Below are positions 2,788 to 54,255 of a stretch of DNA of 64,000 nucleotides, one piece after another. The position numbers and the translations under genes are program-made. The DNA lies in assembly GCA_943357245.1 (NCBI GenBank), contig CALRGH010000001.1, positions 13,456 to 77,455 on the forward strand, read 5' to 3'. This DNA is from Candidatus Nomurabacteria bacterium. GTDB lineage: Bacteria; Patescibacteriota; Minisyncoccia; Phycocordibacterales; UBA9973. Position 1 is the first letter of the stretch, and every line of letters starts with the position of its first letter. The notes under the pieces were generated by a model. The model was not told the DNA's origin, searched no databases, and saw only the letters and a program-made list of their open reading frames with translations.

Positions 2788-2815
2788 ACCCGCCTTTTTG
2801 TTGTAAACTAATCTT

Positions 2816-3232: not shown

Positions 3233-3299
3233 ATTTTTGGTATAGTAGGGAGACCTTAGGGTGACTTTAAGAAGCCTTAGTGGTGAAATATCGTGTTCA

Positions 3300-3427
3300 G
3301 AAATTTTTTCACGCTTCGCGTAAAAAAACTTTCTGAACCGAATTTTGTGGGTCAAAATTATGGCCGGAAATTTTTTCACGCTTCGCGTAAAAAAACTTTC
3401 CGACACGATTTTTGTGGGTCAAAAATC
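3300..3427 (+). repeat. tandem direct duplication (67 + 61 bp) immediately upstream of tRNA-Thr; each copy contains the palindrome ACGCTTCGCGT
   Basis: GAAATTTTTTCACGCTTCGCGTAAAAAAACTTTC(T/C)GA(AC/CA)CGA(A)TTTTGTGGGTCAAAA is read twice in tandem. The second copy abuts the tRNA 5-prime end and is likely a duplicated promoter/leader. Confidence 0.8.
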
Positions 3428-11292: not shown

Positions 11293-11431
11293 ATATACCA
11301 ATATACGAATTATACTAATGATACGAATGTTGCGAATGGCACCTCGTTATTTTCTTTATATCGAGAAGGTAGATCTTGAATGCGTTATTCGTAGTATTCG
11401 TATATTCGCACTCATTTGTATGTTTGTATGT

Positions 11432-15115: not shown

Positions 15116-15122
15116 AGGTTTT

Positions 15123-15185
15123 GTAAATAGTTAGTCCGACCTTCGTCGGACTCCGACATAGGTCGGAGTAGTTAGTAATAAATAG
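15123..15185. repeat. double-hairpin repeat element (GTCCGAC-CTTC-GTCGGAC then CTCCGAC-ATAG-GTCGGAG) in the rpoC-rpoB intergenic spacer; inverted second copy at 40634-40700
   Basis: The 48-bp core 15123-15170 is identical to the reverse complement of 40649-40696. Confidence 0.85.
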
Positions 15186-15210
15186 TTTTTTATCTAATCT
15201 ACGAGGCTAA

Positions 15211-19302: not shown

Positions 19303-19400
19303 GGAGAGACTATACAATAAAAAGTACGTTGTGTCACTAAAACAGCAAAGCAGCGCCGACGTAGTCGGCGCTGCTTTGCTGTTTTAGTTTATTGTGTGTT

Positions 19401-19430
19401 CCCTGCTACTTGCTACCAGTCCCTTGCTAC
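19401..19430 (+). repeat. 30-bp element CCCTGCTACTTGCTACCAGTCCCTTGCTAC (copy a), abutting the stop codon of the KH-domain gene
   Basis: Read directly. Near-identical copies are at 19888-19917 and 22350-22384, with an inverted partial copy at 22270-22294. Confidence 0.85.
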
Positions 19431-19762
19431 TAAATGCCTTTAAGGTCTTCCATTGCCTGATCAACTGTCGATGCACTCATACCTGCGCCACCTGGTGCAG
19501 CGGGAGGTACCAAACGTCCACCTTCTGGCTCGTTGATTTTCAAATTTACTCGAGCGTTGTTTTTCATACCAATGACACGGAGCAATGTTCGGATCGCTTT
19601 TGCGGTATTGCCTTGGCGACCGATAATCTTTCCCATATCAGCTTGATTGACGGACAAGGTAACCAATACTCCCATTTCATCTACCGTTCGATCAATTTTT
19701 ACATCATTCGGATTGTCTACTAATGCTTTCACTACGTACTCTAGAAATTGCTTGTCTTCCAT
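19430..19762 (-). CDS. KH-domain RNA-binding protein (YlqC/UPF0109-like)
   Basis: VGMKNNARVNLKI and IGRQGNTAKAIRTLL (GxxG KH loop). It sits in the conserved rpsP-KH-trmD position. Confidence 0.8.
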   Translation of the reverse strand: MEDKQFLEYVVKALVDNPNDVKIDRTVDEMGVLVTLSVNQADMGKIIGRQGNTAKAIRTLLRVIGMKNNARVNLKINEPEGGRLVPPAAPGGAGMSASTVDQAMEDLKGI

Positions 19763-19866: not shown

Positions 19867-19887
19867 ATGTGGATTATTTTTTGTTTT

Positions 19888-19917
19888 CCCTGCTACTTGC
19901 TACCAGTTCCTTGCTAC
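19888..19917 (+). repeat. 30-bp element CCCTGCTACTTGCTACCAGTTCCTTGCTAC (copy b), overlapping the rpsP stop codon
   Basis: Read directly. It overlaps the rpsP stop (CTA at 19914-19916). Confidence 0.85.
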
Positions 19918-20222
19918 TTACTCGCTTTCATCAACTTTCGTTTCTGTGTTGGTGCTTTCTTCGAAAGGACGTTGCGCTTTTTTGCGGTAAGCACTCCTTC
20001 TTGTACCAAGAAATTATGTACCGTATCTGATACTTGCGCGCCTTCTTTAATGCGCTTCAAGATTGCTTCTTTCTTAAATTCTGGTTTACCAGCATGTGGG
20101 TTATACGCACCCAAAATTTCGATAAATTTACCACTCTTTGCGGCATTTTTTGAATCGGTCAACACGACGCGGAAATGCGCTTCGTTCTTGCGGCCTATTC
20201 GTTCTAATCTGATCTTTAACAT
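19914..20222 (-). CDS. rpsP: 30S ribosomal protein S16
   Basis: MLKIRLERIGRKNEAHFRVVLTDSKNAAKSGKFIEILGAYNP matches the S16 N-terminus. Confidence 0.92.
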   Translation of the reverse strand: MLKIRLERIGRKNEAHFRVVLTDSKNAAKSGKFIEILGAYNPHAGKPEFKKEAILKRIKEGAQVSDTVHNFLVQEGVLTAKKRNVLSKKAPTQKRKLMKASK

Positions 20223-22269: not shown

Positions 22270-22384
22270 GTTGGTAGCAAGTAGCAAGGGTTTCAAAACA
22301 ATATAAACACAAGTGCAGGATTTGGCGAAGCCAAATCCTGCACTTGTGTCTTCCCTGCTACTTGCTACCAGTACCTTGCTACAA
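22270..22384. repeat. composite MITE-like unit: inverted partial copy of the 30-bp element (22270-22294), 20-bp-stem perfect hairpin (22307-22349), direct copy of the element (22350-22384)
   Basis: GTTGGTAGCAAGTAGCAAGGG (reverse complement of CCCTTGCTACTTGCTACCAAC), then ACACAAGTGCAGGATTTGGC-GAA-GCCAAATCCTGCACTTGTGT, then CTTCCCTGCTACTTGCTACCAGTACCTTGCTACA. It lies between the rnr stop and the capA start. Confidence 0.8.
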
Positions 22385-22406
22385 GCAGTATGCTACCATA
22401 CTGCTT

Positions 22407-23889: not shown

Positions 23890-26800
23890 ATGTCACCCGA
23901 AGTACCCGACGCAGATAAAATAGAGAAAAAAATATTCAAAGCGGCGATCATCAACACCGATGAACTTGTGAAATCCCAAGCACGGGATATTGGTGATGCA
24001 AAAATGACAGAATCGAAAGAAGACCGCGACGCAAATTGGTTTACCAGAAACGCAAAACGAATTTGGAAACACAATATTGCCCAAGAGTGGTATCGCCAGC
24101 GAGAAATTTCTCGAGCAAAGAAAGATATTTTAGAGAAACACGACCTTTATGTGGGAGAAAAAGGATTTAATCCGGATACCAACACTCCAGATGGGCAATC
24201 ACACACTGAGGCAATGCAAGCAATCATTGATCGTTTTACGAGCGAATACGAAGATGAAGAAGTGTTACATACAGGAGAAACGCGGAAGACGATCGAAGGC
24301 GCTGCAATCAACACAAATATCAAAGAGCTCATCAAGCGGTATGTAAAAGATAATCTGCCGGATGAAGAATTTGATGAACAGAAAAAACGTATCCTTTCTA
24401 AATATGACAAGAGAACTGCATCAGACAAAAGTTTGTACGCGGATAATTTACTTGCTATCGCCAATGAAGTAAAGAGTGCTGTCGCGCACGGGACAAAACT
24501 TGCAGAGCTTGATTTTGATGTTGAGATCACCCTCGGTAACGCGCGTGAAAGTTTGAGCACGGAGGCACATAACACCTTTGATAAAGCCATCGATGGATTG
24601 CAAAATACCAAAATCGGTAAATACCTCGCGAACGAACCAGCAGTGCTTGGTATCTTGGCTGGCGCATATGAATTAGGAAGAAACAGTATTCAAAGAACTG
24701 TTCGTTCAAAAGGGCTCCAGTGGGCAACGTTCGGCGGTGCAGCGCTTTTAGCTGGTGGTATCAGTGCAGTAAAAGAGCGCGCACGATTTACCCGAGAGCG
24801 CGCGCAGCATCAACGTGAACAAACAAAAGGCATGGAGTTCAAAGAACCTGATATGAAGCGCCGCAAAGAAATGGGTGAAACAGATTACGAAACAAAAAAG
24901 GCAGCAAGTATCATTGAGGATTTGGGCGCCGATCTTGCAAAAATGCATGAGGGAGACGCAACGAATGAAGAAATAAATGCGATCGTAGACCGCCTTGCTG
25001 AGCTTGAATCACGCATCAAGTTGAACGATCAAGAGAAAATTGATCTCATTACCTACGATAAATTTAATACCGTTGAAAAAGATCGCACCGCAATGGATCT
25101 TGGGCGCGCAGAGCTCAAAGTAGCGCTTCGTCGTGCAGGGCGGGAGTTTCAAAATGGAGAAGAAAAAGTTGATTTTGATACTGCATTACGCCTCCTTACC
25201 GAATCCAAAAAAACAGAGTTGCTTGGGGGCGAATCAGGTATTACTGCCCAGAACAAAGAATTTGCAAAACTAAGAAATAGCCGCGCATGGAAAGCCTTCG
25301 CGACAACGACATTGGCAAGTGCGACGGTTGGTGTCCTCTTCCAAGAAGGAAAAGCACTCCTTGATGCTTCACAAGACGGCATTATCGAAGGCACCATCAA
25401 ACATTTTAATAATAAAGAAGATTTGGTTAAACATGGTACTGGTCTTGAAGCACTGCGACGGTGGTTTACCGGGGATCATGCGATGATGCCACACAACGAC
25501 GCATCACTCTTGCATGAAGGTGTCGTTGCTGGCGGACACTTGCAATTGCCAAAAGGAATTAATTTGAAACCCGCCGATGGTACTAATAATTTTGATATTG
25601 TGCGCGATAACGGCAATGTTGTTGTTTCCGACGTGCATATGGAATTCGATGAGAACGGAGACCTCTCTGACGAAACAAAACAAGCGCTCGCGAAGAGTGG
25701 TGTCATAAGCGAGTTTGGAATAGTTGGAGAAAAAACAACAGAGACAGTTACCGAACCAGCGCAAGACTATCTAGACAACCACGCTGGTCTGACACAAAAA
25801 ATTCATCGCGAGCTCTGGTACGACAATGACACCCCACACCCATTTGATGGGAATGAATTGCGCACCGATTGGGGCGGCGACCGCAATACCGGTATCGATG
25901 CAAATGGCAATTATGTATTCAATGTGTCTCGTATGACAGAGGATGGCTCATTCCACAGTGCAAGCAGTGTTGATGCAAAAGAGGCAATAGGAAAAGGAAA
26001 TCTCAAAATGCTCTTTTCCCTCTCCCGCGATACGCAGCACCAAGTATTCGAAGTACAGATTGATGCAGATGGTAATGCGATCATTGATCCAAAAAGCGAA
26101 CTTGGCAAACTACTGTTTGAAAACCAAAACGGCCATGCGGTATTCACCGGCAAATTCGCCGAAGTAGCACAATCTATGGGCACGGCAGAAGACGGCGGAG
26201 AAAATGTACGTATTTTGGGTACGCATGTAGGCTTGGGTAAAGACACTGTTACCGACATCGTACCTACAGATACAACAGTCGGAAAAGTACTGCTCGATAT
26301 TCCAGAAGAAACCACGTACGACACATTAGTCGTTCCAATAGTAGGTCCTCGACGACCTCTTGAACGCGGCAAGTATGCAAAAGACGCAACCGTAGAATCG
26401 AATCGCGCACGAGAAGCTCAACACCGAGCTGAAGATGCAGAAAATAGAGCGGCAGCGGGCACCGCTGTAGCCGCGGAAACAGCATATATTGCAGGAGGTG
26501 TGTCCTACTCGCCAGATCGAGGAGTTACGGGTTTTGGAGAATATACCATAGGGATGAATACAGATCATGTGTATGGATTTGTGGGTCTTGATAGAAAAAC
26601 GACAGATGCAAGATTAAAGGACGTCAAAAAATACACCCACCCAGAAGTAATCGTGTTCGAGGAAGATACAACAAAACGAGACGCTGCGCTCAAACAAATA
26701 CAAGATCTCAAGAGATGGTATCCGAGAGTCAAATTCACCTATATTGCCCTTCCGACAAATATGGATAAAGTAGAGCCAAAGGAAGTAAAAAAATATACAG

Positions 26801-27075
26801 AGCAACGTTTCAAATATATTCTTGAATCTTCATCGCTTGATAAAAAAGTACGTCATGAACTTTACGTCGAGGAATCACTTGAAAAAGAATTGCTTGCTGA
26901 CGTTGAAAGTGCAGAATGGGAAGCATATGTACGGAGTAATTACAAAGCATCCGACGAGCGACTCTATACGATTGCATGGAAAGAAAAAAATAAACAATTA
27001 CTTTCCCACAAAGAACGTATTATTTACGAAGACAACAAAAAGGCCGTTGATAAGTTAATCGGGAAAATAAAATAA
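23890..27075 (+). CDS. large hypothetical protein (1061 aa), charged/coiled-coil-rich with two internal hydrophobic segments
   Basis: Long uninterrupted ORF. No Walker motifs or other recognisable catalytic signatures. Hydrophobic segments LQWATFGGAALLAGGISAV and AFATTTLASATVGVLF. Confidence 0.6.
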   Translation: MSPEVPDADKIEKKIFKAAIINTDELVKSQARDIGDAKMTESKEDRDANWFTRNAKRIWKHNIAQEWYRQREISRAKKDILEKHDLYVGEKGFNPDTNTPDGQSHTEAMQAIIDRFTSEYEDEEVLHTGETRKTIEGAAINTNIKELIKRYVKDNLPDEEFDEQKKRILSKYDKRTASDKSLYADNLLAIANEVKSAVAHGTKLAELDFDVEITLGNARESLSTEAHNTFDKAIDGLQNTKIGKYLANEPAVLGILAGAYELGRNSIQRTVRSKGLQWATFGGAALLAGGISAVKERARFTRERAQHQREQTKGMEFKEPDMKRRKEMGETDYETKKAASIIEDLGADLAKMHEGDATNEEINAIVDRLAELESRIKLNDQEKIDLITYDKFNTVEKDRTAMDLGRAELKVALRRAGREFQNGEEKVDFDTALRLLTESKKTELLGGESGITAQNKEFAKLRNSRAWKAFATTTLASATVGVLFQEGKALLDASQDGIIEGTIKHFNNKEDLVKHGTGLEALRRWFTGDHAMMPHNDASLLHEGVVAGGHLQLPKGINLKPADGTNNFDIVRDNGNVVVSDVHMEFDENGDLSDETKQALAKSGVISEFGIVGEKTTETVTEPAQDYLDNHAGLTQKIHRELWYDNDTPHPFDGNELRTDWGGDRNTGIDANGNYVFNVSRMTEDGSFHSASSVDAKEAIGKGNLKMLFSLSRDTQHQVFEVQIDADGNAIIDPKSELGKLLFENQNGHAVFTGKFAEVAQSMGTAEDGGENVRILGTHVGLGKDTVTDIVPTDTTVGKVLLDIPEETTYDTLVVPIVGPRRPLERGKYAKDATVESNRAREAQHRAEDAENRAAAGTAVAAETAYIAGGVSYSPDRGVTGFGEYTIGMNTDHVYGFVGLDRKTTDARLKDVKKYTHPEVIVFEEDTTKRDAALKQIQDLKRWYPRVKFTYIALPTNMDKVEPKEVKKYTEQRFKYILESSSLDKKVRHELYVEESLEKELLADVESAEWEAYVRSNYKASDERLYTIAWKEKNKQLLSHKERIIYEDNKKAVDKLIGKIK

Positions 27076-40700: not shown

Positions 40701-42743
40701 TTATATATCAATCTCCGCTAACTTTGCATGTGTTTGGATAAATGATTTGCGAGGCGCAACATCCGAACCCATCAACATGTCAAACACTTTATTTGCTTCT
40801 TCGGCATCATCGACATTCACTTGTTTCAAAATACGTCGAGCAGGATCCATTGTTGTTTCCCATAATTCTTCTGCGTTCATTTCTCCGAGACCTTTATAGC
40901 GTTGGAGGTGGAATTTACTTGCCTTCACCTCTTTCTTTGCATCTGTTTCTTCATCAGTTACCACATCATCTCCACCCTCACTTTCGTCTGTCTCTTCGAT
41001 TTCTGCATTGTCGCCAGTAATCGCCATTTTTTCTTCATCAGTATACGCATACCACAGTTCTTTACCTCGCTTTATTTTATAAAGTGGTGGTTGCGCAATA
41101 TAAATATGTCCGGCATCAATGAGTGGTTTGAAGTGACGGTACAAGAGCGTCAAAATAAGCGTACGGATGTGTGCGCCGTCCACGTCGGCATCGGTTGCGA
41201 TAATGATTTTGTGATAACGCAATTTTGAAATATCAAACGTATCACCGATTGCGGTTCCCATCGCAATAACCAAGTTTTTAATTTGTTCAGAGGCGAGCAT
41301 TTTATCAAGACGCGCACGTTCGATATTTAGGATTTTGCCACGCAGTGGCAAAATCGCCTGCGTGCGACGATCGCGTCCCATTTTTGCCGTACCTCCAGCG
41401 GAATCTCCTTCCACAATAAAAATTTCAGATTCTTCTGCACTCTTTGAACCACAGTCTGCAAGCTTGCCCGGAAGCGTCATACCTTCAAGCGCACCTTTGC
41501 GGAGCACGGAATCCTTTGCTGCTTTTGCTGCTTTACGCGCGCGAACCGCCAAGATCACTTTGTTAATAATCATCTTTGCTTCGTCTGGATGCTCTTCGAG
41601 AAATGCTTCAAATGCTTCCCCGAAGACCGTTGTGGTTGCGCCTTGTGCTTCAGGAGAACCCAATTTCCCTTTTGTCTGTCCTTCAAATTGAATTTCACGA
41701 AGTTTTACCGAGACGACTGCGGTCAATCCTTCAAGGACATCATCGCCCGTAAATGCGCCATCAGATTCTTTGATGAAATTATTTTTTTTGCCGTAGGTAT
41801 TCAAAAGACGCGTAAGTGCTGTTTTAAAACCAATCACATGAGTACCTCCTTCTTGCGTATAAATATTGTTCGCAAATGGCAAGATGCGACAAGAAATGTC
41901 ATCGATATATTGGAGCGCAATTTCAACGCCAACATCATTCAATTCTTTGTCCACATAAAAAATAGTATCCTGTACTGTTTTTTGGTGCAGGTTTTGGTGG
42001 CGAATAAGCGATACCAATCCTCCTTCGAAATAAAAACTGTGCGATGGCGCTTCAATGCCTTGGTCTTTCAAATACACTTCATCATCAAGATTTATTTTAC
42101 CTTCGTAATTACGTGCATCGATAACCGTGATTAATAATCCTTTGACTAAATATGCTTGCTGACGCATGCGACTGACAATAATATTCCATTCAAATTCTGT
42201 TGTTGTTTTAAAAATTTCTTTATCAGGCTGGAAGGTCACAATGGTGCCGTGCAATTTCGAAGAACCGACTTTTTTGACGGCTGCTTTTTTCTTACCACAC
42301 GCATATTCTTGCATGTGCTTGCCACCATCACGATGCACTTCTACTTTTGTGTATGTGGAAAGTGCATTCACTACCGACGCACCAACGCCGTGCAAACCGC
42401 CAGAAACTTTGTAGCCGTCACCACCAAATTTACCACCGGCGTGGAGCGTCGTCATGACTGTTTCAAGTGCGGATACTTTTGTTTTGGAATGAATGTCCAC
42501 TGGAATACCGCGACCATTATCCGCAACGCGCACATGATTGTTTGGTAGGAGTGCAATCTCAACACGGTTTGCAAATCCGCCCATCGCTTCATCGCGAGAG
42601 TTATCAAAAATTTCCCATATCAAATGATGCAAGCCTTCAGAGCCTGTTCCTCCAATATACATACCGGGACGTTTTCGTACCGGTTCGAGTCCTTCAAGGA
42701 CTGAAATATCTTCTGCGGAATATGATCCTTTCTTATCTACCAT
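40701..42743 (-). CDS. gyrB: DNA gyrase subunit B (type IIA topoisomerase ATPase subunit)
   Basis: GHKL ATPase motifs EGLHHLIWEIFDNSRDEAMGG and GLHGVGASVVNALS. Toprim EGDSAGG. C-terminal tail. 680 aa. ParE cannot be excluded, but gyrB is more likely. Confidence 0.85.
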   Translation of the reverse strand: MVDKKGSYSAEDISVLEGLEPVRKRPGMYIGGTGSEGLHHLIWEIFDNSRDEAMGGFANRVEIALLPNNHVRVADNGRGIPVDIHSKTKVSALETVMTTLHAGGKFGGDGYKVSGGLHGVGASVVNALSTYTKVEVHRDGGKHMQEYACGKKKAAVKKVGSSKLHGTIVTFQPDKEIFKTTTEFEWNIIVSRMRQQAYLVKGLLITVIDARNYEGKINLDDEVYLKDQGIEAPSHSFYFEGGLVSLIRHQNLHQKTVQDTIFYVDKELNDVGVEIALQYIDDISCRILPFANNIYTQEGGTHVIGFKTALTRLLNTYGKKNNFIKESDGAFTGDDVLEGLTAVVSVKLREIQFEGQTKGKLGSPEAQGATTTVFGEAFEAFLEEHPDEAKMIINKVILAVRARKAAKAAKDSVLRKGALEGMTLPGKLADCGSKSAEESEIFIVEGDSAGGTAKMGRDRRTQAILPLRGKILNIERARLDKMLASEQIKNLVIAMGTAIGDTFDISKLRYHKIIIATDADVDGAHIRTLILTLLYRHFKPLIDAGHIYIAQPPLYKIKRGKELWYAYTDEEKMAITGDNAEIEETDESEGGDDVVTDEETDAKKEVKASKFHLQRYKGLGEMNAEELWETTMDPARRILKQVNVDDAEEANKVFDMLMGSDVAPRKSFIQTHAKLAEIDI

Positions 42744-42840
42744 AAATATTTTTTATACCTCTATTTTAGCATATTTTGATGTAAAAACCTAGCATTTTTT
42801 ACACAAAAAAAGCCTTATTTATAAGGCTTTTTTTGTGTAA

Positions 42841-45800
42841 TTAAGGTGTATCTGATGGTGGAGTATCAGTTGGAGGAGTTTGCTCTGCTGGAGGTGTCTC
42901 GCTTGGTGGATTCTCATCAGTTGGAGGGATATCGCTCGATGGGGTGTCTTGTGGAGGAGTGCCGGTTGGAGGAGTTTCTGATGGAGGCACTTCTTCGGTT
43001 GGCGGTGTCTCTCCTCCTCCAGATGGCGGAAGTGTCTGTCCTGCGTTTTCAATAAGCGCACGAAGTTGGTCTTTATTGATACACACATCTTCAACACACA
43101 ATTCTTTTGTCGTAATTTTATCGGAGAAAATATTTACCAGTCCATTCGTTGTAGATGCGAGCCATGCGCGAAGTGCACCAACCAGAGAATTATCTTCATT
43201 CGTAAGGTCTGCAATATTTGTAATCTTTATATCAAGTTGTTTTACTGCTGCCATCAAAATACCATTCACCGACACTTGATCAATCACATTGCCCCACATG
43301 AACGCCGGATTAACTTCGTCAGCGATATAGCCGATGCGTACTTTTGCAAGCGGAGAATCAGTGCCGTATCCTTCCACTTCATTTCGGTATCGGAATGTAT
43401 GTAATGGTGCATCCAAAATTAACTGCAACGCATTTGTATAATCAGTATAGTCTTCGATATTTTGTTTTGTATCACGAGTAGATGTTTGTGTACCGATAAC
43501 GGTACCTGCCGTATCATTTGCATTTGTTGGTGCTGCAGTATGGATGCGCATATTGCCCGAGTTGTCTTGCCACACGTATCCTGCGGTACCAGATTTTTTC
43601 TGGAAGTTGATCGACCCTGCACCAGTGTTTGTCGCATTTGTATTTCTACCAAGGGTAATATAATTTCCAGCTGCACCATCTCCTAGATCACGATTAGCAC
43701 CATTTAAATGTCCCTCTGCGGTAACACGCCATTTTTCAGTAAGTGTCTGGAGTGTTGTTCCTGATGCCCCTGCATCAGATGTTAGAAATGCAATAGCTCC
43801 TCCGACAGCATTCCCTGTTGCCTTACCACTAGCAAGATTAAGACCTGCGCCGTATTGGTTTGTTCCTGATCCACCACTTGCATTAATAATTATACCTTGA
43901 GGACTCGCCGATGTCACTCCGTTACCAAAGTATGCATCAATTGCAGTTCCACTTCCTGTACTTACCACCCATTGATCGTTCGCAGTTGCAACCGCAGTAG
44001 TACCACTACCAATAACAATCGATCGAGTAATACTATTAGAAGAAACATCTGCGCGGTCACCAATAAGAATATTATTACCACCCGTGGTAATAGTTGCACC
44101 TGCACTGTATCCAAGAAACGTATTTCCTGTAGCAGTTGTGTTCGCAACACCAGCTCCTTTACCAAAAAATGAGTTTGTTCCCCCTGTACTTACAAGTCCT
44201 GCATTCATACCAACAAATGTATTATCACCTGCTGTTGTGTTCGCATCTCCAGCAAGATAGCCGATAAAGGTATTATTGTTTCCTTCTGTGTTCAACCGAC
44301 CAGCACTTTTGCCGAAAAATGCATTGCCAGTACCAGTACTGTTTGTTTTACCCGCAATATCCCCAACAAATGTATTGCCGTCTGCGGTTGTATTTCCCAT
44401 CCCCGCACCCCCCCCAATAAATACATTACTATCTCCTGTTGTATTAACAGAACCCGCTGTGCTTCCTATAAATATATTTTCCGTACCTGTTGTATTAACC
44501 TCTCCAGCTCTATATCCAATAGCAGTATTATATGATGCAGTGGTAATAGCAGCTCCTGCTGATTTCCCAAGCAGTATATTACTTACACCCGTAGTGATTG
44601 AGTCACCAGTATTATCTCCAAATAAAATATTATCAACACCACCACCTGCGCCATTAAGCGCTGCACCTGCGCCAATAGTCCCTGTAAACACGTTATTATA
44701 AGCGTCTGCAGTCACATCTCCACTACCACTTACACCAACAGCCCCCCAGCTAACACCACTATATACTTGAAATTCACCATCATCTGTATTATAAATAAGC
44801 TCTCCTGCTACTGGAGTTACAATATCGTCACGTCTTGTCGTATTCATACGTGGCAGAAGCACTCCGGAAGTCGATGAAGTAATATCAAGCACTGCTTCTG
44901 GGGATGCTATACCGATGCCGAGTGACTCTGCTCCATCATCCCAAAAAAAGTTACCGTTTTTCGCGATTGTCGTTCCATTAGAAAAGAGTACAGAACCTGT
45001 GTCAAGGGATGGTAACGTTAATTTTCCATTGAATGTATTCCAATCAGTGGACGTGAGAAATCCTTTTGCACCAGTTGCCGCCGCTTGGCCGTTTGTATAA
45101 TCAATAGCAATAAGACCACTTGTTGCATTAAAGTCAGCAGCGGTAAAAGTTGCCGCACCTTTTGTGGAGCCGTCAGCTGCGGCATTCGTAATTGAAATAG
45201 TACCCGAACTATTAGAAAGTGGCGAAGAGAATGTAAGCGAACTCTGCTTACTGTTAAACGTCGTCCAATCGGTTGCTGAAAGATAGCCGGAGACACTTCC
45301 TGTTGCTTGTGAAATTGTCATGATGCCAGTCGAGTTGCTATATGAAAGTGGTATGCTACCTGCGACACTAATAGCACTTCGTGCACGAGCATCAGTGAAA
45401 TACTGATTCGAACCTTCGGTAATATTCGATGTGGTGAGTGTCACCGAACCAGTTGAACCATTGACACTCGTAACGGATGCACCGTTTAGAATTTCCACCC
45501 AATTGGCAAGAACTGTCGCATCGGTGTCTGCAAGTACGTATGTTTTGCTTTGATCAGTACGAATAGCAAGGTCGCCTTGAGTTGCAGAAAGTGCGAGCAT
45601 GGCGACTTGTGATGCGACAACGTACGTATCTGAAAATGAAAGCGACGCAAGTTGAGATGTCGGCACTTTGCCGTTGCCATCAAGTGTCGCAATCCCATCC
45701 GCAACACCTTTCTGTAAACTAATTCGCGCATCGGCACGACTATTTGTATAGTAGAGATTCGTACCTTCATCAATTTCAGTCGTTGAGAGATTAATCGCGC

Positions 45801-47124
45801 CAACTTCGCCGTTAACGGAAAGCACCGAATCTGTAGGGGTAAGTATTTGGACCCAGTTGGAGACGTTTGAATAATCAACAGCTGAGAGTACATAGGTTGT
45901 GTTCGTGTCAGTACGAATTGCAAGATCCCCAATACCAGCGCTTGAAAGCGCAAGCATCGCGGCTTGTGATGCAACGACGAAGATATCACTAATTGCAAGT
46001 GATGAAAGTTGCGACATTGGCACTTTACCGCTCGAATCAAGTGTTGCAACACCACTTACCGCGCCCATGTAGGAAGTCGGTACAAAATCAAGCGTCTGCC
46101 ACGAAAGCGTACCTGATCCGTTGTTTTTTAAATACGATGATGACGCGCCTTGTGATGACGGAAACGAGTACACGACATTATTTAATTTCACAATATTTCC
46201 ACTTGAATCTACTTGAAATTTATCCCCAGAACCAACTGTGAAAAGCGATGCAGGTGACGTATCTCCAACACCAACATATCCTGTCGAAGAAATGCGCATT
46301 CGTTCATTTGCATTTGCATCACCACCAGTGAAAAACTTGAGTGATTCTGTTGCTCCGGCAGTTCCTATTACCAAATCAGAATCACTTGTATATAAATATG
46401 CAGTGTGTGGACCTCCATAAATAAGCGATAAATCATTGTACCCAGAACTATTGATACCAAGATCAACGTAATATGAATCATCATCACCATCATCAGCGGT
46501 TGCAACGAAATCAGACGATGCACTGTCGCCGTCATTCAAGTTTTGAATGTTTACTTGCAAATAACTATCCGTGTTGCCAGAAAAATTTCCCACCACGTTT
46601 GGAAAAATCGTACCGCCGCCGGCTGCGAATGATCGCGCTGCAGTGACATTGCCTTCACTATCAATATTGAGCTTGCTTGCGCCGTCAACTTGAAAATCGG
46701 CGAGGTAATGCGTGCCGGAACCTGTCGCACCTTCGGTGACATTAACGAGTAAACCAATGTACGCAGCGGTGCCAGATTGTGAGACTGTCGGATGAATATA
46801 GTGACCGTACGCAGAACCGGAACTTCCGGATACCGTAGACGTAAACGTTTTTATTCCTGCAAAACTTTGTGCAGATGTATTAACAAGACCTGTGTCTGTA
46901 ATTGACGCATCAGGAATTTCAACAAAACATTCTGCGTCTCCGGGCGCACATGTTGGATCTAATGTTTCATTTTGAAGATAGGGAGATGTAGGCGGTGTTG
47001 CAAAAGCAACAATTCCTCCAGAAAACGCAACAAGAAAAAGCACCGATAAAATTAGTGTTCGATTTGTCCCTTGTTTTATTTTTTTGAGAACAGATTCTTT
47101 AATTGTGCGAATGAGTCTACGCAC
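42841..47124 (-). CDS. giant secreted tail-fibre-like surface protein (1427 aa): signal anchor, duplicated phage-tail-fibre repeats, NxTxG repeat array, peptidase-S74 intramolecular chaperone domain, Pro/Thr-rich C-terminal tail
   Basis: N-terminal anchor TLILSVLFLVAFSGGIVAFA. Two roughly 95-aa internal copies (ATLDSSGKVPMSQLSSLAISDIFVVASQAAMLALS...NWVQI and ATLDGNGKVPTSQLASLSFSDTYVVASQVAMLALS...NWVEI). More than 12 tandem units of the NTTGxxNxFxGxxAG type. C-terminal STRDTKQNIEDY...HTFRYRNE...IGYIADEV matches the S74 chaperone motifs (SDxRLKxNI, GFIAQEV). The final 60 aa are PPT/PPS repeats. Confidence 0.8.
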   Translation of the reverse strand: MRRLIRTIKESVLKKIKQGTNRTLILSVLFLVAFSGGIVAFATPPTSPYLQNETLDPTCAPGDAECFVEIPDASITDTGLVNTSAQSFAGIKTFTSTVSGSSGSAYGHYIHPTVSQSGTAAYIGLLVNVTEGATGSGTHYLADFQVDGASKLNIDSEGNVTAARSFAAGGGTIFPNVVGNFSGNTDSYLQVNIQNLNDGDSASSDFVATADDGDDDSYYVDLGINSSGYNDLSLIYGGPHTAYLYTSDSDLVIGTAGATESLKFFTGGDANANERMRISSTGYVGVGDTSPASLFTVGSGDKFQVDSSGNIVKLNNVVYSFPSSQGASSSYLKNNGSGTLSWQTLDFVPTSYMGAVSGVATLDSSGKVPMSQLSSLAISDIFVVASQAAMLALSSAGIGDLAIRTDTNTTYVLSAVDYSNVSNWVQILTPTDSVLSVNGEVGAINLSTTEIDEGTNLYYTNSRADARISLQKGVADGIATLDGNGKVPTSQLASLSFSDTYVVASQVAMLALSATQGDLAIRTDQSKTYVLADTDATVLANWVEILNGASVTSVNGSTGSVTLTTSNITEGSNQYFTDARARSAISVAGSIPLSYSNSTGIMTISQATGSVSGYLSATDWTTFNSKQSSLTFSSPLSNSSGTISITNAAADGSTKGAATFTAADFNATSGLIAIDYTNGQAAATGAKGFLTSTDWNTFNGKLTLPSLDTGSVLFSNGTTIAKNGNFFWDDGAESLGIGIASPEAVLDITSSTSGVLLPRMNTTRRDDIVTPVAGELIYNTDDGEFQVYSGVSWGAVGVSGSGDVTADAYNNVFTGTIGAGAALNGAGGGVDNILFGDNTGDSITTGVSNILLGKSAGAAITTASYNTAIGYRAGEVNTTGTENIFIGSTAGSVNTTGDSNVFIGGGAGMGNTTADGNTFVGDIAGKTNSTGTGNAFFGKSAGRLNTEGNNNTFIGYLAGDANTTAGDNTFVGMNAGLVSTGGTNSFFGKGAGVANTTATGNTFLGYSAGATITTGGNNILIGDRADVSSNSITRSIVIGSGTTAVATANDQWVVSTGSGTAIDAYFGNGVTSASPQGIIINASGGSGTNQYGAGLNLASGKATGNAVGGAIAFLTSDAGASGTTLQTLTEKWRVTAEGHLNGANRDLGDGAAGNYITLGRNTNATNTGAGSINFQKKSGTAGYVWQDNSGNMRIHTAAPTNANDTAGTVIGTQTSTRDTKQNIEDYTDYTNALQLILDAPLHTFRYRNEVEGYGTDSPLAKVRIGYIADEVNPAFMWGNVIDQVSVNGILMAAVKQLDIKITNIADLTNEDNSLVGALRAWLASTTNGLVNIFSDKITTKELCVEDVCINKDQLRALIENAGQTLPPSGGGETPPTEEVPPSETPPTGTPPQDTPSSDIPPTDENPPSETPPAEQTPPTDTPPSDTP

Positions 47125-47195
47125 TTAAAAAGTATACCACTTTTTAAGTGCTAAAAAGGTATAAAGATGTTGATAACGTTGGCAAGGATAGTTAT

Positions 47196-47226
47196 CAAGT
47201 TTATAAAGTTATAAGGTTATAAAGTT
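47196..47226. repeat. left inverted repeat (CAAGTTTATAAAGTTATAAGGTTATAAAGTT) of the four-helix-bundle gene cassette
   Basis: Its partner at 47564-47593 reads CAAGTTATAAAGTTTGTAAAGTTATAAAGG in reverse complement. Confidence 0.7.
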
Positions 47227-47561
47227 TTAATAAATCCTGAGATTATCCTAGATATTTCAGTTGAAAGAATTTCAAGTTTAGCAGCTTGGTCTTTTCGAAA
47301 ATATCGCAACTCAACACCGAGAATAAGCATTGAACGGACTTCCCCACATGACCCCTTTGCAATATATAAAAAATTCTTAAATTCTTTATTTGTTTGACGT
47401 TCAAATCCTTCCGCAATATTGTTCATAATAGAAACAGATGCTCGTTCAATCTGATTTTTAAAAGAGAAATCTTTGCAAACTGAAACATCCTTATAAATCT
47501 GTAACGTTAATTCTTTTGCTTTTTGCCATGCAATAATCTCTTCAAACCTCGTAATTTTCAT
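47217..47561 (-). CDS. four-helix-bundle protein of the 23S-rRNA-intervening-sequence / DGR-Avd-like family
   Basis: 114 aa: EEIIAWQKAKELTLQIYK...NQIERASVSIMNNIAEGFERQTNKEFKNFLYIAKGSCGEVRSMLILG is the characteristic pattern of this family. Confidence 0.8.
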   Translation of the reverse strand: MKITRFEEIIAWQKAKELTLQIYKDVSVCKDFSFKNQIERASVSIMNNIAEGFERQTNKEFKNFLYIAKGSCGEVRSMLILGVELRYFRKDQAAKLEILSTEISRIISGFIKTL

Positions 47562-47599: not shown

Positions 47600-48739
47600 T
47601 TAGCGGACAGTGGCCTTAACCACGTCCGCTGTTTCCTGCTCTAATTTTTTATGAATCGCATTCACTTCCACATCCGTCAGCGTGCGATCAAGTGCACGGT
47701 ACGTGATTCGATATGCATAACTTTTTTTACCAGCACCAAATTTGTCTGCATTTTCGTATTCATCGACGAGCGCCATTTCTTCTGCCATATCACCAACCAC
47801 ATCGCGCACCACGTCAAAATAATTATTCGGCATAAATATTGCGCTGTCGACAATGAAAGAAATGTCGCGCACGATTGCTGGGTACTTACTTACCTCTTTA
47901 AACTTAGTGCCGAGTTTTAATTGCTTTTTTACACGTTCGTCATCACTCCAAAGCAATCGGATATCCGGAAGTTCGGTGCTGATGATTGCTAATCGTTCAA
48001 GTCCAAGTCCAAACGCCCAACCCGTCCATTTTGAGGAATCAACACCAAGTTTATCAAGCACACTTCCCTTCACGACACCTGCACCATTAACTTCAACCCA
48101 CGCACCATTAATTTCCACCTCCATTTCAAGTGACGGATCCGTATACGGAAACGTATCGGGATTAAAACGATATTTAATATCATTACCGAACACTGCCTTT
48201 GCCGTATCTTCCAATACTTTTTCTAAATCAGCGCGCGTGATTTCTCCTTGTTCTTTTGGTATTAAATACCAACCATCGAGCTGATGAAAGACATTCATGT
48301 GACGGCGATCTATTTCATCTTTGCGATACACTTTGCCAAATGCGAACGCGCCAACAGGCTCGTTGTTTGCGATGCGTGCCTTGATTTTTTCATCGTGCAA
48401 ATAGTAATACCACATCACCGTCATTTGCGTACGCAAAATATGATTGTCATCTGCATAGTACGTATCAGATTTTGAACGTGCCGGATGATCCATCGGAAAA
48501 TCAAATAAATCAAATCCAATGTCAGTTGAAATAATTTGTGGCACTTCGATAGTATCAAATGTTGTAAATGCGGGTAGCGCCAAAATTCGCTTCACCATCT
48601 CTCCAATCGGACTGCCGTCTGTCCGCGACAGATCCGGCATGTCCAAATATCGCTTCATGCGAAGCGCTTCTGCGTCTGTCCGCTTGTCCAATTCCGCGAG
48701 TAATCGTGTTTCTTCAGCTGTATCTACCTTAATTTCCAT
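47600..48739 (-). CDS. pheS: phenylalanyl-tRNA synthetase alpha-type catalytic domain fused to a C-terminal FDX-ACB anticodon-binding domain (monomeric, mitochondrial-type architecture)
   Basis: Class II motifs HPARS...FRNE-like and GWAFGLGLERLAIISTELPDIRL. The C-terminal roughly 100 aa (SKYPAIVRDISFIVDSAIF...KKSYAYRITYRALDRTLTDVEVNAIHKKL) match the FDX-ACB domain that normally sits at the PheT C-terminus. The long PheS N-terminal coiled coil is absent. The start is taken at the ATG at 48739 (the ORF-track start at 48748 is TTG). Confidence 0.75.
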   Translation of the reverse strand: MEIKVDTAEETRLLAELDKRTDAEALRMKRYLDMPDLSRTDGSPIGEMVKRILALPAFTTFDTIEVPQIISTDIGFDLFDFPMDHPARSKSDTYYADDNHILRTQMTVMWYYYLHDEKIKARIANNEPVGAFAFGKVYRKDEIDRRHMNVFHQLDGWYLIPKEQGEITRADLEKVLEDTAKAVFGNDIKYRFNPDTFPYTDPSLEMEVEINGAWVEVNGAGVVKGSVLDKLGVDSSKWTGWAFGLGLERLAIISTELPDIRLLWSDDERVKKQLKLGTKFKEVSKYPAIVRDISFIVDSAIFMPNNYFDVVRDVVGDMAEEMALVDEYENADKFGAGKKSYAYRITYRALDRTLTDVEVNAIHKKLEQETADVVKATVR

Positions 48740-48777
48740 ATTGGGCAACTATAGCAAAAATATGAGGTATTTTCCAC

Positions 48778-48812
48778 TCTGTGTCACCCTGAATTTATTT
48801 CAGGGTCCAGGC
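48778..48812. repeat. left terminal inverted repeat / hairpin of the GIY-YIG cassette (TCTGTGTCACCCTGAATTTATTTCAGGGTCCAGGC)
   Basis: The reverse complement of 49106-49140 is CTTGTGTCATCCTGAATTTATTTCAGGATCCAGGC. There are three mismatches, two of which are compensatory within the internal hairpin. Confidence 0.8.
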
Positions 48813-49096
48813 TAAATTTCTAAGTCCTCCCACTGAGGATTATTTGCTTCAATAAAATTTAATTTCCATTTTCTATGCCAATTTTTTAATTGTTTTTCTC
48901 GGACAATAGCAATTTGCACATCATTTGTCTCTTCAAAATAGACAAGTTTGTGCACATTATATTTTTCAGTAAATCCTTCGACAAGATTATTTTTATGTTC
49001 AGATATTCTTCGCCGTAAATTATTTGTTACGCCAATATAAATAGTGCCATTTCTATCTGTTGCTAAAATATATACATAATATTTCTTGTATAGCAT
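48812..49096 (-). CDS. GIY-YIG nuclease-family protein (94 aa)
   Basis: YVYILATDRNGTIYIGVTNNLRRRISEH...KLVYFE is the GIY-YIG motif set (GIY..YIG..R..E). Confidence 0.8.
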   Translation of the reverse strand: MLYKKYYVYILATDRNGTIYIGVTNNLRRRISEHKNNLVEGFTEKYNVHKLVYFEETNDVQIAIVREKQLKNWHRKWKLNFIEANNPQWEDLEI

Positions 49097-51769: not shown

Positions 51770-53050
51770 ATGGCTACAAGGGTAAATTCATGGTATAAAC
51801 AAGCATATATGTTTGCCGCGATTACGAACAGATTGGATTCTTTTTTCCATCTCGACACCAAAAAATTGCTCGGTAGAGCATCGTATTTGCTCGGCAGTCA
51901 GGCAGTAAGTAATCTGTTCTCTTTTGCTGTCGCTCTTGCCGCGGCGTATTTTATCAGCAAAGAGACCTACGGCACCTACCGCTATATTCTTTCAACACTC
52001 TCGTTCATTGGTGCATTCTCACTCACAGGATTAGGCACGCCCATCATCCGAAGTGTGGCACGTGGATATGATCATCTCTTTGCAACGTCTATCCTTCGCT
52101 CTCTTTTGTGGTCTATCCCTGCAATCCTCGTCGGTGCAGGTATTGGTGTGTGGTATCTCGTGCATCAAAATACAGTGCTCGGATTCTCAATTCTACTTGG
52201 TGCGATCGCATTCCCTACCATACAAGCATTCCTCTGGTACCGCTCATATTTAAACGGTAAAAAATATTTCCGTGCGCTCATGAAGACCAACATCGCGTAT
52301 TCGGTACTGACGTCAGGTGCGATCATTGTGACATTACTCATGCGTCCGTCTGCAATCACCCTCGTTGTCGTGTACTGCGTCGCAAATGTACTAACGCTCG
52401 TCGTCCTTACTACTATCATCCGAAAAAAATTTCGTCCAAACAATCTACAAGATCCGGAAGCAGGAAAACTGGAGCACCACATGAGTCTTATGAATGTTTT
52501 GGATATCGGCGCAACGCAATTAGATAAAATAATTCTTTTCCAAGTTGCAGGCCCTATAGAAGTTGCGCGATACACATTTGCGACACTCTTACCAGAGCAA
52601 TTGCGCAATGTGCTCAAATATATTCCGCAACTTTCCATGCCTATTTTTGCAAGCCTTCCAACAGATACCGCAAAATCAAAGGGGTTGTTTTTGGTGAAGA
52701 AATTATTCCTCGTCACTATTCCGATTGTCATCGTGTACATACTCGTTGCACCACTTGCCTATAAACTTCTTTTTCCAAATTACACAGAGGTTATTATGTA
52801 TTCACAAGTATTTGCGCTCATGCTCATCTTTGATGGCGGGATCAGTGGTACTATTTTAAAAGCGAAAAATAAAGTACAAAGTTTGTATATAGTGACAGTG
52901 ACTTCTAATATTGTCCGAATTATACTTCTTGTTGTCTTTGGATTCTTGTGGGGCATTTGGGGAGTAATCGGATCAAGAATAATAAGTCGCATTATTAGTT
53001 TTGTTGTTGCATATATAGCAGTACGAAAAATCCCTGTACAAGCAGTATGA
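51770..53050 (+). CDS. polysaccharide flippase-like MOP-superfamily membrane protein (Wzx-like)
   Basis: 426 aa with about 12 predicted TM helices. The N-terminal pattern is typical of oligosaccharide-unit flippases. Confidence 0.65.
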   Translation: MATRVNSWYKQAYMFAAITNRLDSFFHLDTKKLLGRASYLLGSQAVSNLFSFAVALAAAYFISKETYGTYRYILSTLSFIGAFSLTGLGTPIIRSVARGYDHLFATSILRSLLWSIPAILVGAGIGVWYLVHQNTVLGFSILLGAIAFPTIQAFLWYRSYLNGKKYFRALMKTNIAYSVLTSGAIIVTLLMRPSAITLVVVYCVANVLTLVVLTTIIRKKFRPNNLQDPEAGKLEHHMSLMNVLDIGATQLDKIILFQVAGPIEVARYTFATLLPEQLRNVLKYIPQLSMPIFASLPTDTAKSKGLFLVKKLFLVTIPIVIVYILVAPLAYKLLFPNYTEVIMYSQVFALMLIFDGGISGTILKAKNKVQSLYIVTVTSNIVRIILLVVFGFLWGIWGVIGSRIISRIISFVVAYIAVRKIPVQAV

Positions 53051-54255
53051 AATTCTCCTCGCTAAAAATAAATACCATCGTTATCTCCATACTTGCCGTC
53101 CTTGCGCTTGCAGTGAGCATATTCTTCGCATATTCTTTTCCAAAACTCCCTGTCATTTCTGATTCTGCAGATTACCACGAAATTGCGTCACGTATACTCA
53201 CCGACAAAACATATGTAACTATTTCAAGCGATAAAATTCTCTATCCGCCAATGTATCCCATATTCTTATCTGTCGTGTATGCGTTCACCCATATTGGTTC
53301 ATTTACATCAGTCTACTTTGTACAATATCTGCTCGTGGGTCTGATGGCTGTTCTTGTTTTTTTAATACTGCGAAGATTTGCAAAAGTATCGATCGGACTT
53401 TGTGTACTTGCTTCACTTGCAACTCTTTTCTGGCCGTATTTTATTTTGTATTCACAGTTAGTGAGTTCAGAAATTGTATATTCATTTTTATTGTTACTTT
53501 TCTTTTATTTATTTTTACATATCAAAAAAGAATCTTCCAACAAACTCGTTGTCGCTTCCGGAATAATCTTGGGTCTCGCACTCATTACCCGCCCTGTCGC
53601 ACTCCTTATGTTGCCATGGATATTGATTGGATTTTTTATACTCGGAAAAATGCCGAAAATATTTGGTGTATTTTCTGTGCCGTGGAAAAAATATCTTCTT
53701 ATTCTTCTTGTCACAACAATCGTCCTCGTGCCATGGATCACCTACGTAAAAATAAAATATGATAGATTTATTCCTATCGCATCGAATTTGTCATTTGTCT
53801 TCAAAAAAGCAAATAGTACGTTCGCATATTTGCCAGATACTGCGCCACGGGAACAAGAAAGTAAATTTGTTTCTCTGCTCAAAGTCAAAGCAAAAAATAT
53901 CTACTTATTCTGGGATCCGGGCGCGTCTGGCTACCATCTCGACATCATCAAAACAACATACCCTGTCGCGGGTTTCGCAGTATCATTTTATAAAATCTTT
54001 TTCTTTCTCGTACTTTTCTTGGCGGGCTTTGGTGCGGTGTTACTCCGCAAAAATCCTCTCGTACAAATCTGCGTCCTGCTTATCACCTATTTCTGGGCAC
54101 TCCACACTGTCCTTTTTCCCTTCCCTCGCTACACATTGCCAATTATCCCGTATGTCGTTATAGTTGCTGTAGTCGCATTTTCTTATGGAACAACATACTT
54201 CAAAACCGCGCGTATTCATCGCCTTACCGGCAAAGAACGAGAGTCACGCAATTAA
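53047..54255 (+). CDS. GT-C-fold membrane glycosyltransferase (ArnT/PMT-like, family 39/83-like)
   Basis: 402 aa, polytopic, with the first extracytoplasmic loop carrying acidic residues (ISDSADYHE). Its genomic context with GtrB-like and GtrA-like genes supports the call. Confidence 0.55.
   Translation: MKFSSLKINTIVISILAVLALAVSIFFAYSFPKLPVISDSADYHEIASRILTDKTYVTISSDKILYPPMYPIFLSVVYAFTHIGSFTSVYFVQYLLVGLMAVLVFLILRRFAKVSIGLCVLASLATLFWPYFILYSQLVSSEIVYSFLLLLFFYLFLHIKKESSNKLVVASGIILGLALITRPVALLMLPWILIGFFILGKMPKIFGVFSVPWKKYLLILLVTTIVLVPWITYVKIKYDRFIPIASNLSFVFKKANSTFAYLPDTAPREQESKFVSLLKVKAKNIYLFWDPGASGYHLDIIKTTYPVAGFAVSFYKIFFFLVLFLAGFGAVLLRKNPLVQICVLLITYFWALHTVLFPFPRYTLPIIPYVVIVAVVAFSYGTTYFKTARIHRLTGKERESRN

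Follow-up and report, generated by a model that had tools for sequence, protein, structure and literature searches.

A phage-tail-fibre-like protein of a Patescibacteria chromosome in which an S74 chaperone domain is followed by a lineage-specific extension and an acidic tail

Mosaic adhesive trimer (MAT) fibres of Bdellovibrio bacteriovorus are defined as a family by their own conserved, beta-rich N-terminal domain of ~130 aa after the signal peptide (Caulton et al. 2024, PMC10769870). For example, Bd3182, a MAT fibre of the S74 subgroup, is 922 aa long with 140 aa after its catalytic Ser782 and self-cleaves at S782, the S782A substitution blocking cleavage, and the consensus of the S74 motif is SDxxxK (PMC10769870). 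Here we analysed a 64,000-nt stretch of a Candidatus Nomurabacteria genome (contig CALRGH010000001.1, positions 13,456 to 77,455; the window throughout), in which an earlier note, made from the sequence alone, had described a gene at 42841-47124 for a 1427-aa tail-fibre-like surface protein, referred to below as the fibre. The open reading frame (ORF) is present at these positions on the minus strand, and an entry in a public protein collection (P0001), encoded on an 84-kb contig, matches its product exactly. Our analyses suggest, at a probability of roughly 0.65, that the fibre is exported by Sec, trimeric and similar to phage tail fibres, that it stands on the cell surface, probably as an adhesin, and that the chaperone is cut off from it together with a C-terminal extension and tail. 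The coding sequence and the features of its C-terminal part are listed first.

42841-47124, minus strand: complete coding sequence of the predicted mosaic, phage-fibre-like surface protein, 1427 aa, GTG start, TAA stop.
43465-43482, minus strand: putative catalytic dyad, Ser1215 (43480-43482) and Lys1220 (43465-43467), from conservation and the Pfam alignment.
43180-43479, minus strand: S74 intramolecular chaperone core including a long helix, aa 1216 to ~1315, from Pfam, AlphaFold2 (AF2) and Foldseek.
43036-43179, minus strand: lineage-specific folded extension, aa ~1316-1363, from the alignment, the consensus of 92 clusters and the AF2 secondary structure.
42844-43035, minus strand: acidic Pro/Thr tail, aa 1364-1427, from composition, predicted disorder and a 15-nt DNA periodicity.

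The C-terminal block of the fibre is established as an S74 domain at both the sequence and the fold level. Pfam Peptidase_S74 (PF13884; 58 model positions, curated cutoff 22 bits) matches aa 1216-1275, scoring 25.5 bits when the whole protein is searched and 28.8 bits when only the C-terminal fragment is, and 13 of 32 aligned homologues match the same model. Because position 2 of the Pfam profile aligns with T1216, Ser1215 takes the catalytic position, and the predicted scissile bond is S1215|T1216. In an alignment of 50 sequences, Ser1215 and Lys1220 (S-x4-K) are invariant in all 45 sequences that cover those columns, and autoproteolysis at Ser1215/Lys1220 is the activity that we infer from this dyad. 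The first AF2 model of the C-terminal region, built on a 32-sequence alignment, reached a predicted local distance difference test score (pLDDT) of 66 and ranked S74 structures at the top of its PDB matches, although these matches were non-significant; a search of BFVD returned phage S74, tail-fibre and endosialidase proteins as top matches (E 2e-3, probability 0.95). The second AF2 model, built on the 50-sequence alignment, has a pLDDT of 94-96 across the chaperone core, and when it was compared by Foldseek with 350,542 PDB chains the top 11 matches were all S74 chaperones (7DC3, 3GUD and 3GW6; E 2e-3 to 0.17, probability up to 1.00), the twelfth-ranked match having an E-value of ~4. The best of them, 7DC3, the ICA domain of myelin regulatory factor (MyRF), was matched with probability 1.00, E 2e-3 and a target-normalised template modelling (TM) score of 0.54, with 137 of its 138 residues aligned. 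Structure prediction, which the earlier note had proposed as a check, thus yields, as a monomer model, a fold like that of solved S74 chaperones, and the chaperone domain with its Ser-Lys dyad that the note had read from the letters is upheld. Three features that define the S74/CIMCD family, namely the profile score, the Ser-Lys dyad and the fold, are found in the fibre, but the consensus Asp is not. No NCBIfam model matches the fibre protein, and neither phmmer with the whole fibre nor the profile of alignment A1 gave a meaningful match to PDB sequences.

What follows the catalytic serine is longer than in Bd3182 or in the nearest phage and Bacteroidota relatives. The 212 residues after Ser1215 comprise the chaperone core (to ~1315), the extension (~1316-1363) and a 64-aa tail, the folded part amounting to 148 aa. 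The ~150 residues that had been placed behind the chaperone were therefore overstated, because they were counted from the end of a 58-position Pfam model that covers only the start of the chaperone; about 100 of them belong to the chaperone or to the folded extension. Clearly, the 64-aa tail is the only unambiguously extra part, the folded 148 aa being comparable to the 140 aa of Bd3182. What stands of that claim is that, relative to the nearest phage and Bacteroidota relatives, extension and tail are, judging from sequence comparison, both lineage-specific additions, and that they are strongly conserved. In the model and the consensus, the extension consists of a helix, an NG(I/L) motif, a beta-hairpin (ELC1343VEDVC1348INKDQL) and a terminal helix. 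C1343 and C1348 are invariant in 50 of 50 aligned sequences and N1327 is kept in 45 of 50; the AF2 model places the two cysteines on opposite strands of one tight hairpin. There are only four cysteines in the whole 1427-aa fibre, the N-terminal pair C59/C66 and this C-terminal pair. Together with a DsbA-like thioredoxin gene in the window (6669-7421, plus strand), the paired hairpin cysteines suggest an extracytoplasmic disulfide. The tail, a Pro/Thr-rich repeat as announced by the earlier note, holds 22 Pro, 13 Thr and 12 Asp+Glu among its 64 residues and no Lys or Arg. It may be O-glycosylated, the lead for this being a PMT_2-type (GT-C) glycosyltransferase gene at 53047-54255 (plus strand) that lies within a polysaccharide cluster (49187 to ~58700).

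The chaperone, hairpin extension and tail recur together and are treated here as a cassette. When aa 1205-1363 were searched exhaustively with HMMER against 1.84 billion cluster representatives, 698 clusters matched at E<=1e-3 and 121 at E<=1e-10, and 140 of the matches listed were analysed. The match covers the extension in 92 of these 140 clusters, so that the cassette occurs in at least 92 clusters; among these 92, a low-complexity tail of at least 30 aa follows in 87 (median 71.5 aa, range 33-176) and the Cys...Cys motif is present in 86. The pooled tails consist of 16% T, 16% P, 13% E, 10% S, 8% D and 0.5% K+R, with a net charge of about -0.2 per residue, and share no conserved terminal motif. 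Where a match was confined to the extension, a canonical and higher-scoring S74 domain lies just upstream (10 of 10), and the passengers of these ten proteins vary, including YadA-head repeats and an LVIVD beta-propeller, while one of the ten bears an Ig-like domain behind its tail. Since P0268 carries this cassette on an LVIVD propeller, the cassette is not limited to fibres; likewise, the released fragment is not always a mere tail, because a Bact_surface_Ig-like domain follows the low-complexity linker in P0265, P0126 and P0127, the latter two coming from the first alignment. Named homologues and loci that combine the cassette with the N-terminal leader described below come from metagenome-assembled genomes of Paceibacterota/Patescibacteria. 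Proteins with the Patescibacteria-type leader have 201-251 aa after the serine and end in a K/R-free low-complexity tail, whereas in short homologues sharing the tip and chaperone core 86-115 aa follow the serine, and Bacteroidota S74 proteins end 96-133 aa after it in a K/R-rich helix.

Such conservation raises the possibility that S74 cleavage is a release or arming switch, in which extension and tail tether the C-terminus (to the wall, an S-layer or the membrane) or carry functional domains of their own. The logic is that of MyRF, whose internal S74/ICA domain parts two functional halves when it cleaves, and it is this internal domain that gives the top structural match of the fibre. A strongly conserved cassette, with cysteines invariant in 50 of 50 sequences and an extension found in 92 analysed clusters, would fit, as would the Ig-like domain after the tail in P0126, P0127 and P0265 and the presence of the cassette on non-fibre passengers such as P0268. 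On the other hand, the fibre has no C-terminal transmembrane segment, no sorting motif and no conserved terminal residues; the composition of the tail is conserved but its sequence is not, and attachment would more obviously be at the N-terminus, with its conserved leader. We consider a switch of this kind unlikely. It is also doubtful, at similarly low odds, that S74 domain, disulfide hairpin and acidic tail form a device, specific to Patescibacteria and transferable among fibre and other passengers, that matures or targets large surface proteins and could time or position the autoproteolytic arming of host-contact fibres; such a device may act as a transient tether to wall or S-layer or as an O-glycosylated handle.

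In the reading that we prefer, an exported adhesive fibre that sheds its chaperone, the remaining modules would be arranged from the N-terminal signal to the distal tip as follows.

46999-47124, minus strand: signal peptide or signal anchor, aa 1-42, with a basic n-region, a hydrophobic stretch at aa 23-42 and then A-F-A before TPP.
46915-46998, minus strand: post-signal motif TPPTSPYxxxETLDPTC59APGDAEC66, from a comparison of 12 homologues.
46075-46857, minus strand: shaft module, aa ~90-350, from jackhmmer on retrieved proteins.
45715-46068, minus strand: phage tail repeat copy 1, aa 353-470 (ATLDSSGKVPMSQL...), from internal repeats and PHROG matches.
45364-45711, minus strand: second copy of the phage tail repeat, aa 472-587 (ATLDGNGKVPTSQL...), sharing 56% identity with the first.
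44845-45327, minus strand: shaft segment, aa ~600-760, with two TDWxTFN motifs, the part held in common with Bdellovibrionota fibre loci.
44059-44622, minus strand: ~11 copies of the 17-aa unit NTTGxxNxFIGxxAGxx, aa ~835-1022, from DNA repeats spaced at 51/102 nt.
43480-44058, minus strand: tip region, aa 1023-1215, ending in ...LRIHTAAPTNANDTAGTVIGTQTS1215, from alignment A1.

By hydropathy, the fibre has a single strongly hydrophobic stretch (aa 21-46) and nothing else that looks like a transmembrane segment, in agreement with the signal anchor of the earlier note; the stretch may be a signal peptide or an anchor. The motif ..FA|TPPxSPY is kept in diverged homologues in the N-terminal comparison of 12 sequences, and C59 and C66 behind it form a putative disulfide loop. 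Among the retrieved proteins and loci, the signal segment and the post-signal motif constitute a lineage-specific N-terminal leader that tblastn finds only in Patescibacteria-type loci; searching a word index for homologues of the first 114 aa gave no match. The leader is not confined to the fibre itself. At the locus of orthologue P0002 (L001), further giant genes lie downstream of the fibre gene (14195-17864 and 10387-14076), and the leader is common to paralogous giant proteins, since the 5' end of one of these genes matches the leader region with 76% DNA identity. An IS200-type Y1 transposase gene and a gene for a Por_Secre_tail protein sit between the giant genes of this locus.

Behind the leader, the shaft is built of modules with wide relationships. 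According to jackhmmer, the module at aa ~90-350 occurs as tandem repeats in many Bacteroidota and other fibre proteins, and it probably corresponds to Pfam PF26696 PTL_trimer, a mapping drawn from co-occurrence. Two phage tail-fibre repeats had been noticed before in this protein; both copies are real, bear the ATLDxxGKVPxSQL motif and match phage tail and virion families of PHROGs at E 1e-22 to 1e-33, but each is ~118 aa long and not ~95. The long repeat array was also correctly seen, its 17-aa (51-nt) units being beta-helix-like and resembling YadA-head repeats, and a PHROG tail spike family matches aa 809-975. From about aa 1150 onwards, the tip shows homology in alignment A1 to the bodies of short tail fibres from siphophages. 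Gly, Thr, Ser and Ala are very high in the composition of the fibre.

The mechanism that we propose for the fibre is modelled on the behaviour shown experimentally for Bd3182 and phage tailspikes (PMC10769870). The N-terminal signal would carry the chain across the membrane, and either the signal or the TPPxSPY/Cys59-Cys66 module behind it would hold the N-terminus at the cell surface. The S74 chaperone (aa 1216 to ~1315) would then register three chains from their C-terminal end and drive the folding of the beta-helical tip and shaft in the C-to-N direction. Once this is achieved, Ser1215/Lys1220 would cut S1215|T1216, and a 22.9-kDa fragment made up of chaperone, hairpin extension and tail would be discarded, leaving a mature fibre of ~118 kDa per chain whose distal tip (aa ~1023-1215) would be exposed for ligand binding, the likely function of the fibre being contact with a partner cell or surface. 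Extension and tail would serve as a lineage-specific accessory of the chaperone, removed together with it; disordered, K/R-free and perhaps O-glycosylated, the tail would be a spacer, or help solubility, during folding outside a cell of the monoderm type. What was observed is the domain composition, the conservation of dyad and cysteines, the similarity in fold, the genomic context and the distribution of the family; that the fibre is exported, forms trimers, is cleaved, stays at the surface and adheres, and what the tail does, are predictions of the proposal.

Several points weigh against this view of the fibre. The sequence at the cleavage site is STRDTK and departs from the SDxxxK consensus, with Thr instead of Asp after Ser1215; across the family, the residue after the catalytic serine is Asp in 24 of 45 sequences, Thr in 15 and another residue in six. 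The best Foldseek E-values are only ~2e-3, and every structure model shows a single chain of what is presumably an intertwined trimer, so that their TM-scores are modest. The strong conservation of the extension, with its invariant cysteines, suggests a role more specific than that of a spacer, and the folded Ig-like domain found after the tail in some homologues fits poorly with a purely disposable fragment.

The genomic context tells which kind of element the fibre gene belongs to. Its neighbours are gyrB (40701-42743, minus strand) on one side and, upstream on the other side, a gene for a 114-aa protein (47217-47561, minus strand) that belongs to the 23S rRNA intervening-sequence protein (IVP) family, beyond which lie genes for a PheS-type ligase, a small GIY-YIG protein and a sugar transferase. 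Other genes of the window include rpoB, rpoC, rpoD, dnaG, dnaE, thrS, smc, rnc, nusB, rpsB, tsf and the polysaccharide cluster. The order pheS-IVP-fibre is kept at two orthologous loci, where the fibre orthologues are 2359 and 2139 aa long and the IVP proteins are 100% and 89% identical. The two orthologues keep aa 1-345 at 87% identity and aa 783-1427 at 64-66%, with a shaft between these conserved ends that is swapped and longer. At a further locus (L007) of a relative whose GyrB and DnaE are 77% and 61% identical, an S74 protein with leader and tail lies between pheT and gyrB, with thrS and dnaE nearby as in the window and no IVP gene at the syntenic position. The fibre locus is a vertically inherited chromosomal locus encoding a fast-evolving mosaic protein. 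Recent transfer was considered as an explanation of the 100% identical IVP protein at L001 and rejected, because regional DNA identity is uniform at ~84%. Neither the fibre gene nor the IVP gene has a second copy in the window. Two features read by eye bear on transcription.

47131-47139, minus strand: extended -10-like element TGGTATACT, 6 nt upstream of the GTG.
42805-42834, minus strand: A-run, 7-bp hairpin (AGCCTTA-TAAA-TAAGGCT) and T-run, directly after the stop codon.

The first may be the fibre gene's own promoter, giving a nearly leaderless transcript; a consensus promoter scan left TGGTATACT unflagged, there being no -35 element. The second is likely, from its sequence, an intrinsic terminator parting the fibre gene from gyrB; it was not among the output of a terminator pattern scan. 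Together, the terminator-like hairpin and TGGTATACT make the fibre gene look like its own transcription unit.

These data bear on whether the gene might be a relic of a prophage or tailocin, abandoned by a phage-derived particle or still in its service. Several of its modules, as well as the tip and chaperone taken together, are indeed homologous to real phage tail fibres. However, the 38 ORFs scanned in the window include no capsid, terminase, tube, sheath, baseplate, integrase or lysis gene, the flanks are housekeeping genes whose synteny is kept in relatives, and the G+C content of the fibre gene (0.43-0.44) fits that of its surroundings (0.39-0.46). The fibre also has an N-terminal secretion signal, which would be unexpected on a fibre assembled onto particles in the cytoplasm. 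From the 64 kb of the 84-kb source contig that the window covers, a prophage or tailocin fibre is rejected by context (gyrB, pheS, thrS, dnaE, rpoBC and the polysaccharide cluster) and by synteny, and we regard a remnant of either kind as very improbable indeed. In this respect the earlier note was right, as far as the 38 scanned ORFs go, that no other phage genes are in the window and that the gene is a chromosomal surface protein rather than a prophage, and its alternative of a tailocin-like fibre falls away.

The same note had called the upstream neighbour Avd-like and had suggested inspecting the 3' end of the fibre gene for a variable region with a template repeat elsewhere. A diversity-generating retroelement (DGR) in which the fibre gene is the variable target and the four-helix-bundle neighbour the Avd protein would be consistent with the relationship of the 23S_rRNA_IVP family to Avd and with a weak match of the neighbour to the PHROG 'Avd of DGR' (E 9e-4). 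A four-helix-bundle gene is there, but its identity is 23S_rRNA_IVP (PF05635)/TIGR02436, with an E-value of 6e-33. In a six-frame scan, YxDD motifs in long ORFs occurred only within pheS and gyrB, giving no sign of a reverse transcriptase, and none of the 38 scanned ORFs had an RVT match; the 3' end of the fibre gene has no repeated counterpart elsewhere in the window, and the fibre has neither a C-type-lectin nor another known scaffold of variable regions. Its C-terminal 645 aa are 64-66% identical to the orthologues, with no localised adenine-type hypervariability noted, and the IVP gene is missing at L007. The DGR reading fails because the window holds neither a reverse transcriptase motif nor a template repeat, and we give it next to no credence.

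As another alternative to a ligand-specific adhesin, the fibre might be a structural part of the envelope, for instance of an S-layer-like kind or as a surface coat. The stable and syntenic place beside core genes, the several giant paralogues with the same leader in related genomes and the high Gly, Thr, Ser and Ala content would be in agreement with such a role. On the other hand, close relatives exchange the shaft but retain the two ends, a pattern typical of proteins that interact with a host or ligand, and the modules are of the kind found in phage receptor-binding fibres and Bdellovibrio MAT adhesins; a purely structural role therefore appears improbable to us, and we retain the exported, self-processed adhesive fibre as the preferred reading.

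Some observations on the surrounding genes stand apart from the fibre. The PheS-type gene next to the IVP gene (47600-48748, minus strand) encodes 382 aa that join a PheS catalytic core to an FDX-ACB anticodon-binding domain; it scores 245.8 bits with pheS_mito (cutoff 258) and 244.6 bits with NF051887 (cutoff 300), and this domain architecture points to a PheRS of the monomeric, mitochondrial type or to an 'SrmL'-like ligase. The window showed no pheT, and L007 has canonical pheS and pheT at the same place. Between the pheS and sugar-transferase genes, a free-standing gene (48812-49096, minus strand) encodes a 94-aa GIY-YIG nuclease domain. Elsewhere, an element of ~50 nt (..TTCCCTGCTACTTGCTACCAGTCCCTTGCTAC..) is present in three copies that are 80-86% identical (19392-19441, 19879-19928 and 22344-22393), near gene starts around the RNase R gene. 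Three 78-nt repeats at 9328-9538, in the 5' part of an rpoD-like sigma-70 gene (8227-9561, minus strand), encode a repeated Lys/Ala-rich N-terminal extension, and a tandem 67-nt pair at 3277-3410, 79% identical, marks the 5' end of an unannotated ORF of 208 aa (2780-3406, minus strand). A 1061-aa ORF at 23890-27075 (plus strand) is Lys/Glu-rich, without a Pfam or NCBIfam match and without a hydrophobic signal-like segment at its N-terminus.

Patescibacteria, which also go by the name candidate phyla radiation (CPR), are thought to live attached to other microbes, by means that are largely unknown. If the proposed reading of the fibre is true, some of them carry stably inherited, fast-diversifying fibres derived from phage fibres, matured by the same self-cleaving chaperone as those of phages and of the predator Bdellovibrio, which would make these proteins concrete candidates for host contact. 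The conserved cassette is a defined and testable feature that could reveal how trimeric fibres fold outside a cell without a periplasm. From a practical point of view, a profile of S74 plus extension could be a sequence marker for mining such surface proteins in CPR metagenomes.

How the fibre compares with known systems can be followed module by module. The comparison with Avd and the 23S rRNA intervening-sequence family concerns the neighbouring gene only, which encodes a 114-aa protein with the four-helix-bundle make-up of that family (PF05635/TIGR02436); unlike in Avd systems, no reverse transcriptase and no template repeat or variable region is found in the window, and the pairing of fibre and IVP genes is seen only in close orthologous loci. 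The ICA domain of MyRF is the best structural match and, like the S74 domain of the fibre, is internal with sequence C-terminal to it. MyRF, however, is a eukaryotic membrane-bound transcription factor in which a transmembrane anchor and a luminal domain come after the ICA domain, whereas in the fibre a hairpin and an acidic disordered tail follow. Among Bacteroidota, proteins such as P0014 (Ohtaekwangia) and P0030 (Chryseolinea) share repeated PTL_trimer-type modules (query aa ~100-350) and a terminal S74 domain, but they end in a K/R-rich helix 96-133 aa after the serine of SDxRLK, without a low-complexity tail, and lack the Patescibacteria leader; they are termed 'tail fiber domain-containing proteins', a label that NCBI also gives to some relatives of the fibre.

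Phage chaperones, represented by endosialidase K1F (3GW6), phi29 gp12 (3GUD) and the proteins P0138 and P0150, share the Peptidase_S74 domain and the Ser-x4-Lys arrangement, 3GW6 and 3GUD being matched at the fold level by Foldseek. With phage fibres the likeness includes ~65 residues before the cleavage site (GRNTNA...LRIHTAAPTNANDTAGTVIGTQTS) as well as the chaperone core, at 29-39% identity over ~70% of a 211-aa query. In contrast to the fibre, these phage relatives end 86-115 aa after the serine in a coiled-coil helix, carry a different N-terminal segment in place of the leader and lie in tail gene modules; P0138 and P0150 are encoded in siphophage tail modules alongside a capsid gene, Minor_tail_Z, Sipho_tail, Sipho_Gp37 and an endolysin.

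In full-text searches, within their incomplete coverage of the literature, we found no work linking S74 or intramolecular chaperones to Patescibacteria or CPR, and none of the Patescibacteria or CPR terms looked for occurs in the supplementary text of PMC10769870, including its table of MAT-like proteins in other taxa. The S74 subgroup of the Bdellovibrio MAT fibres is, by analogy, the closest functional counterpart of the fibre. Both are cellular and not viral, bear a predicted or known signal peptide and reach ~1000 aa or more, and the fibre would share with them the form of a long, mosaic, phage-fibre-like trimer with a beta-helical tip and a terminal self-cleaving S74 domain. Its shaft (aa ~337-1041) matches Bdellovibrionota loci at 29-52% identity, and the combination of exchangeable modules with a terminal S74 domain is common to both, as seen in the shaft swaps of the orthologues and in modules found across phyla. 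On the other hand, tblastn, at its limited sensitivity, detects neither the leader nor the C-terminal cassette of the fibre in Bdellovibrionota loci, nor the ~130-aa MAT N-terminal domain in the fibre; the fibre has 212 aa after its catalytic serine as against 140 in Bd3182, adds a cysteine hairpin and an acidic tail, and has STRDTK where the consensus is SDxxxK. Because neither the N-terminal domain of the MAT family nor its C-terminal end is shared in sequence, we do not file the fibre as a member of that family. Together, these comparisons show that the design of a fibre ending in an S74 chaperone was already known, whereas the Patescibacteria leader and the cassette of hairpin and acidic tail appear to be undescribed additions to it.

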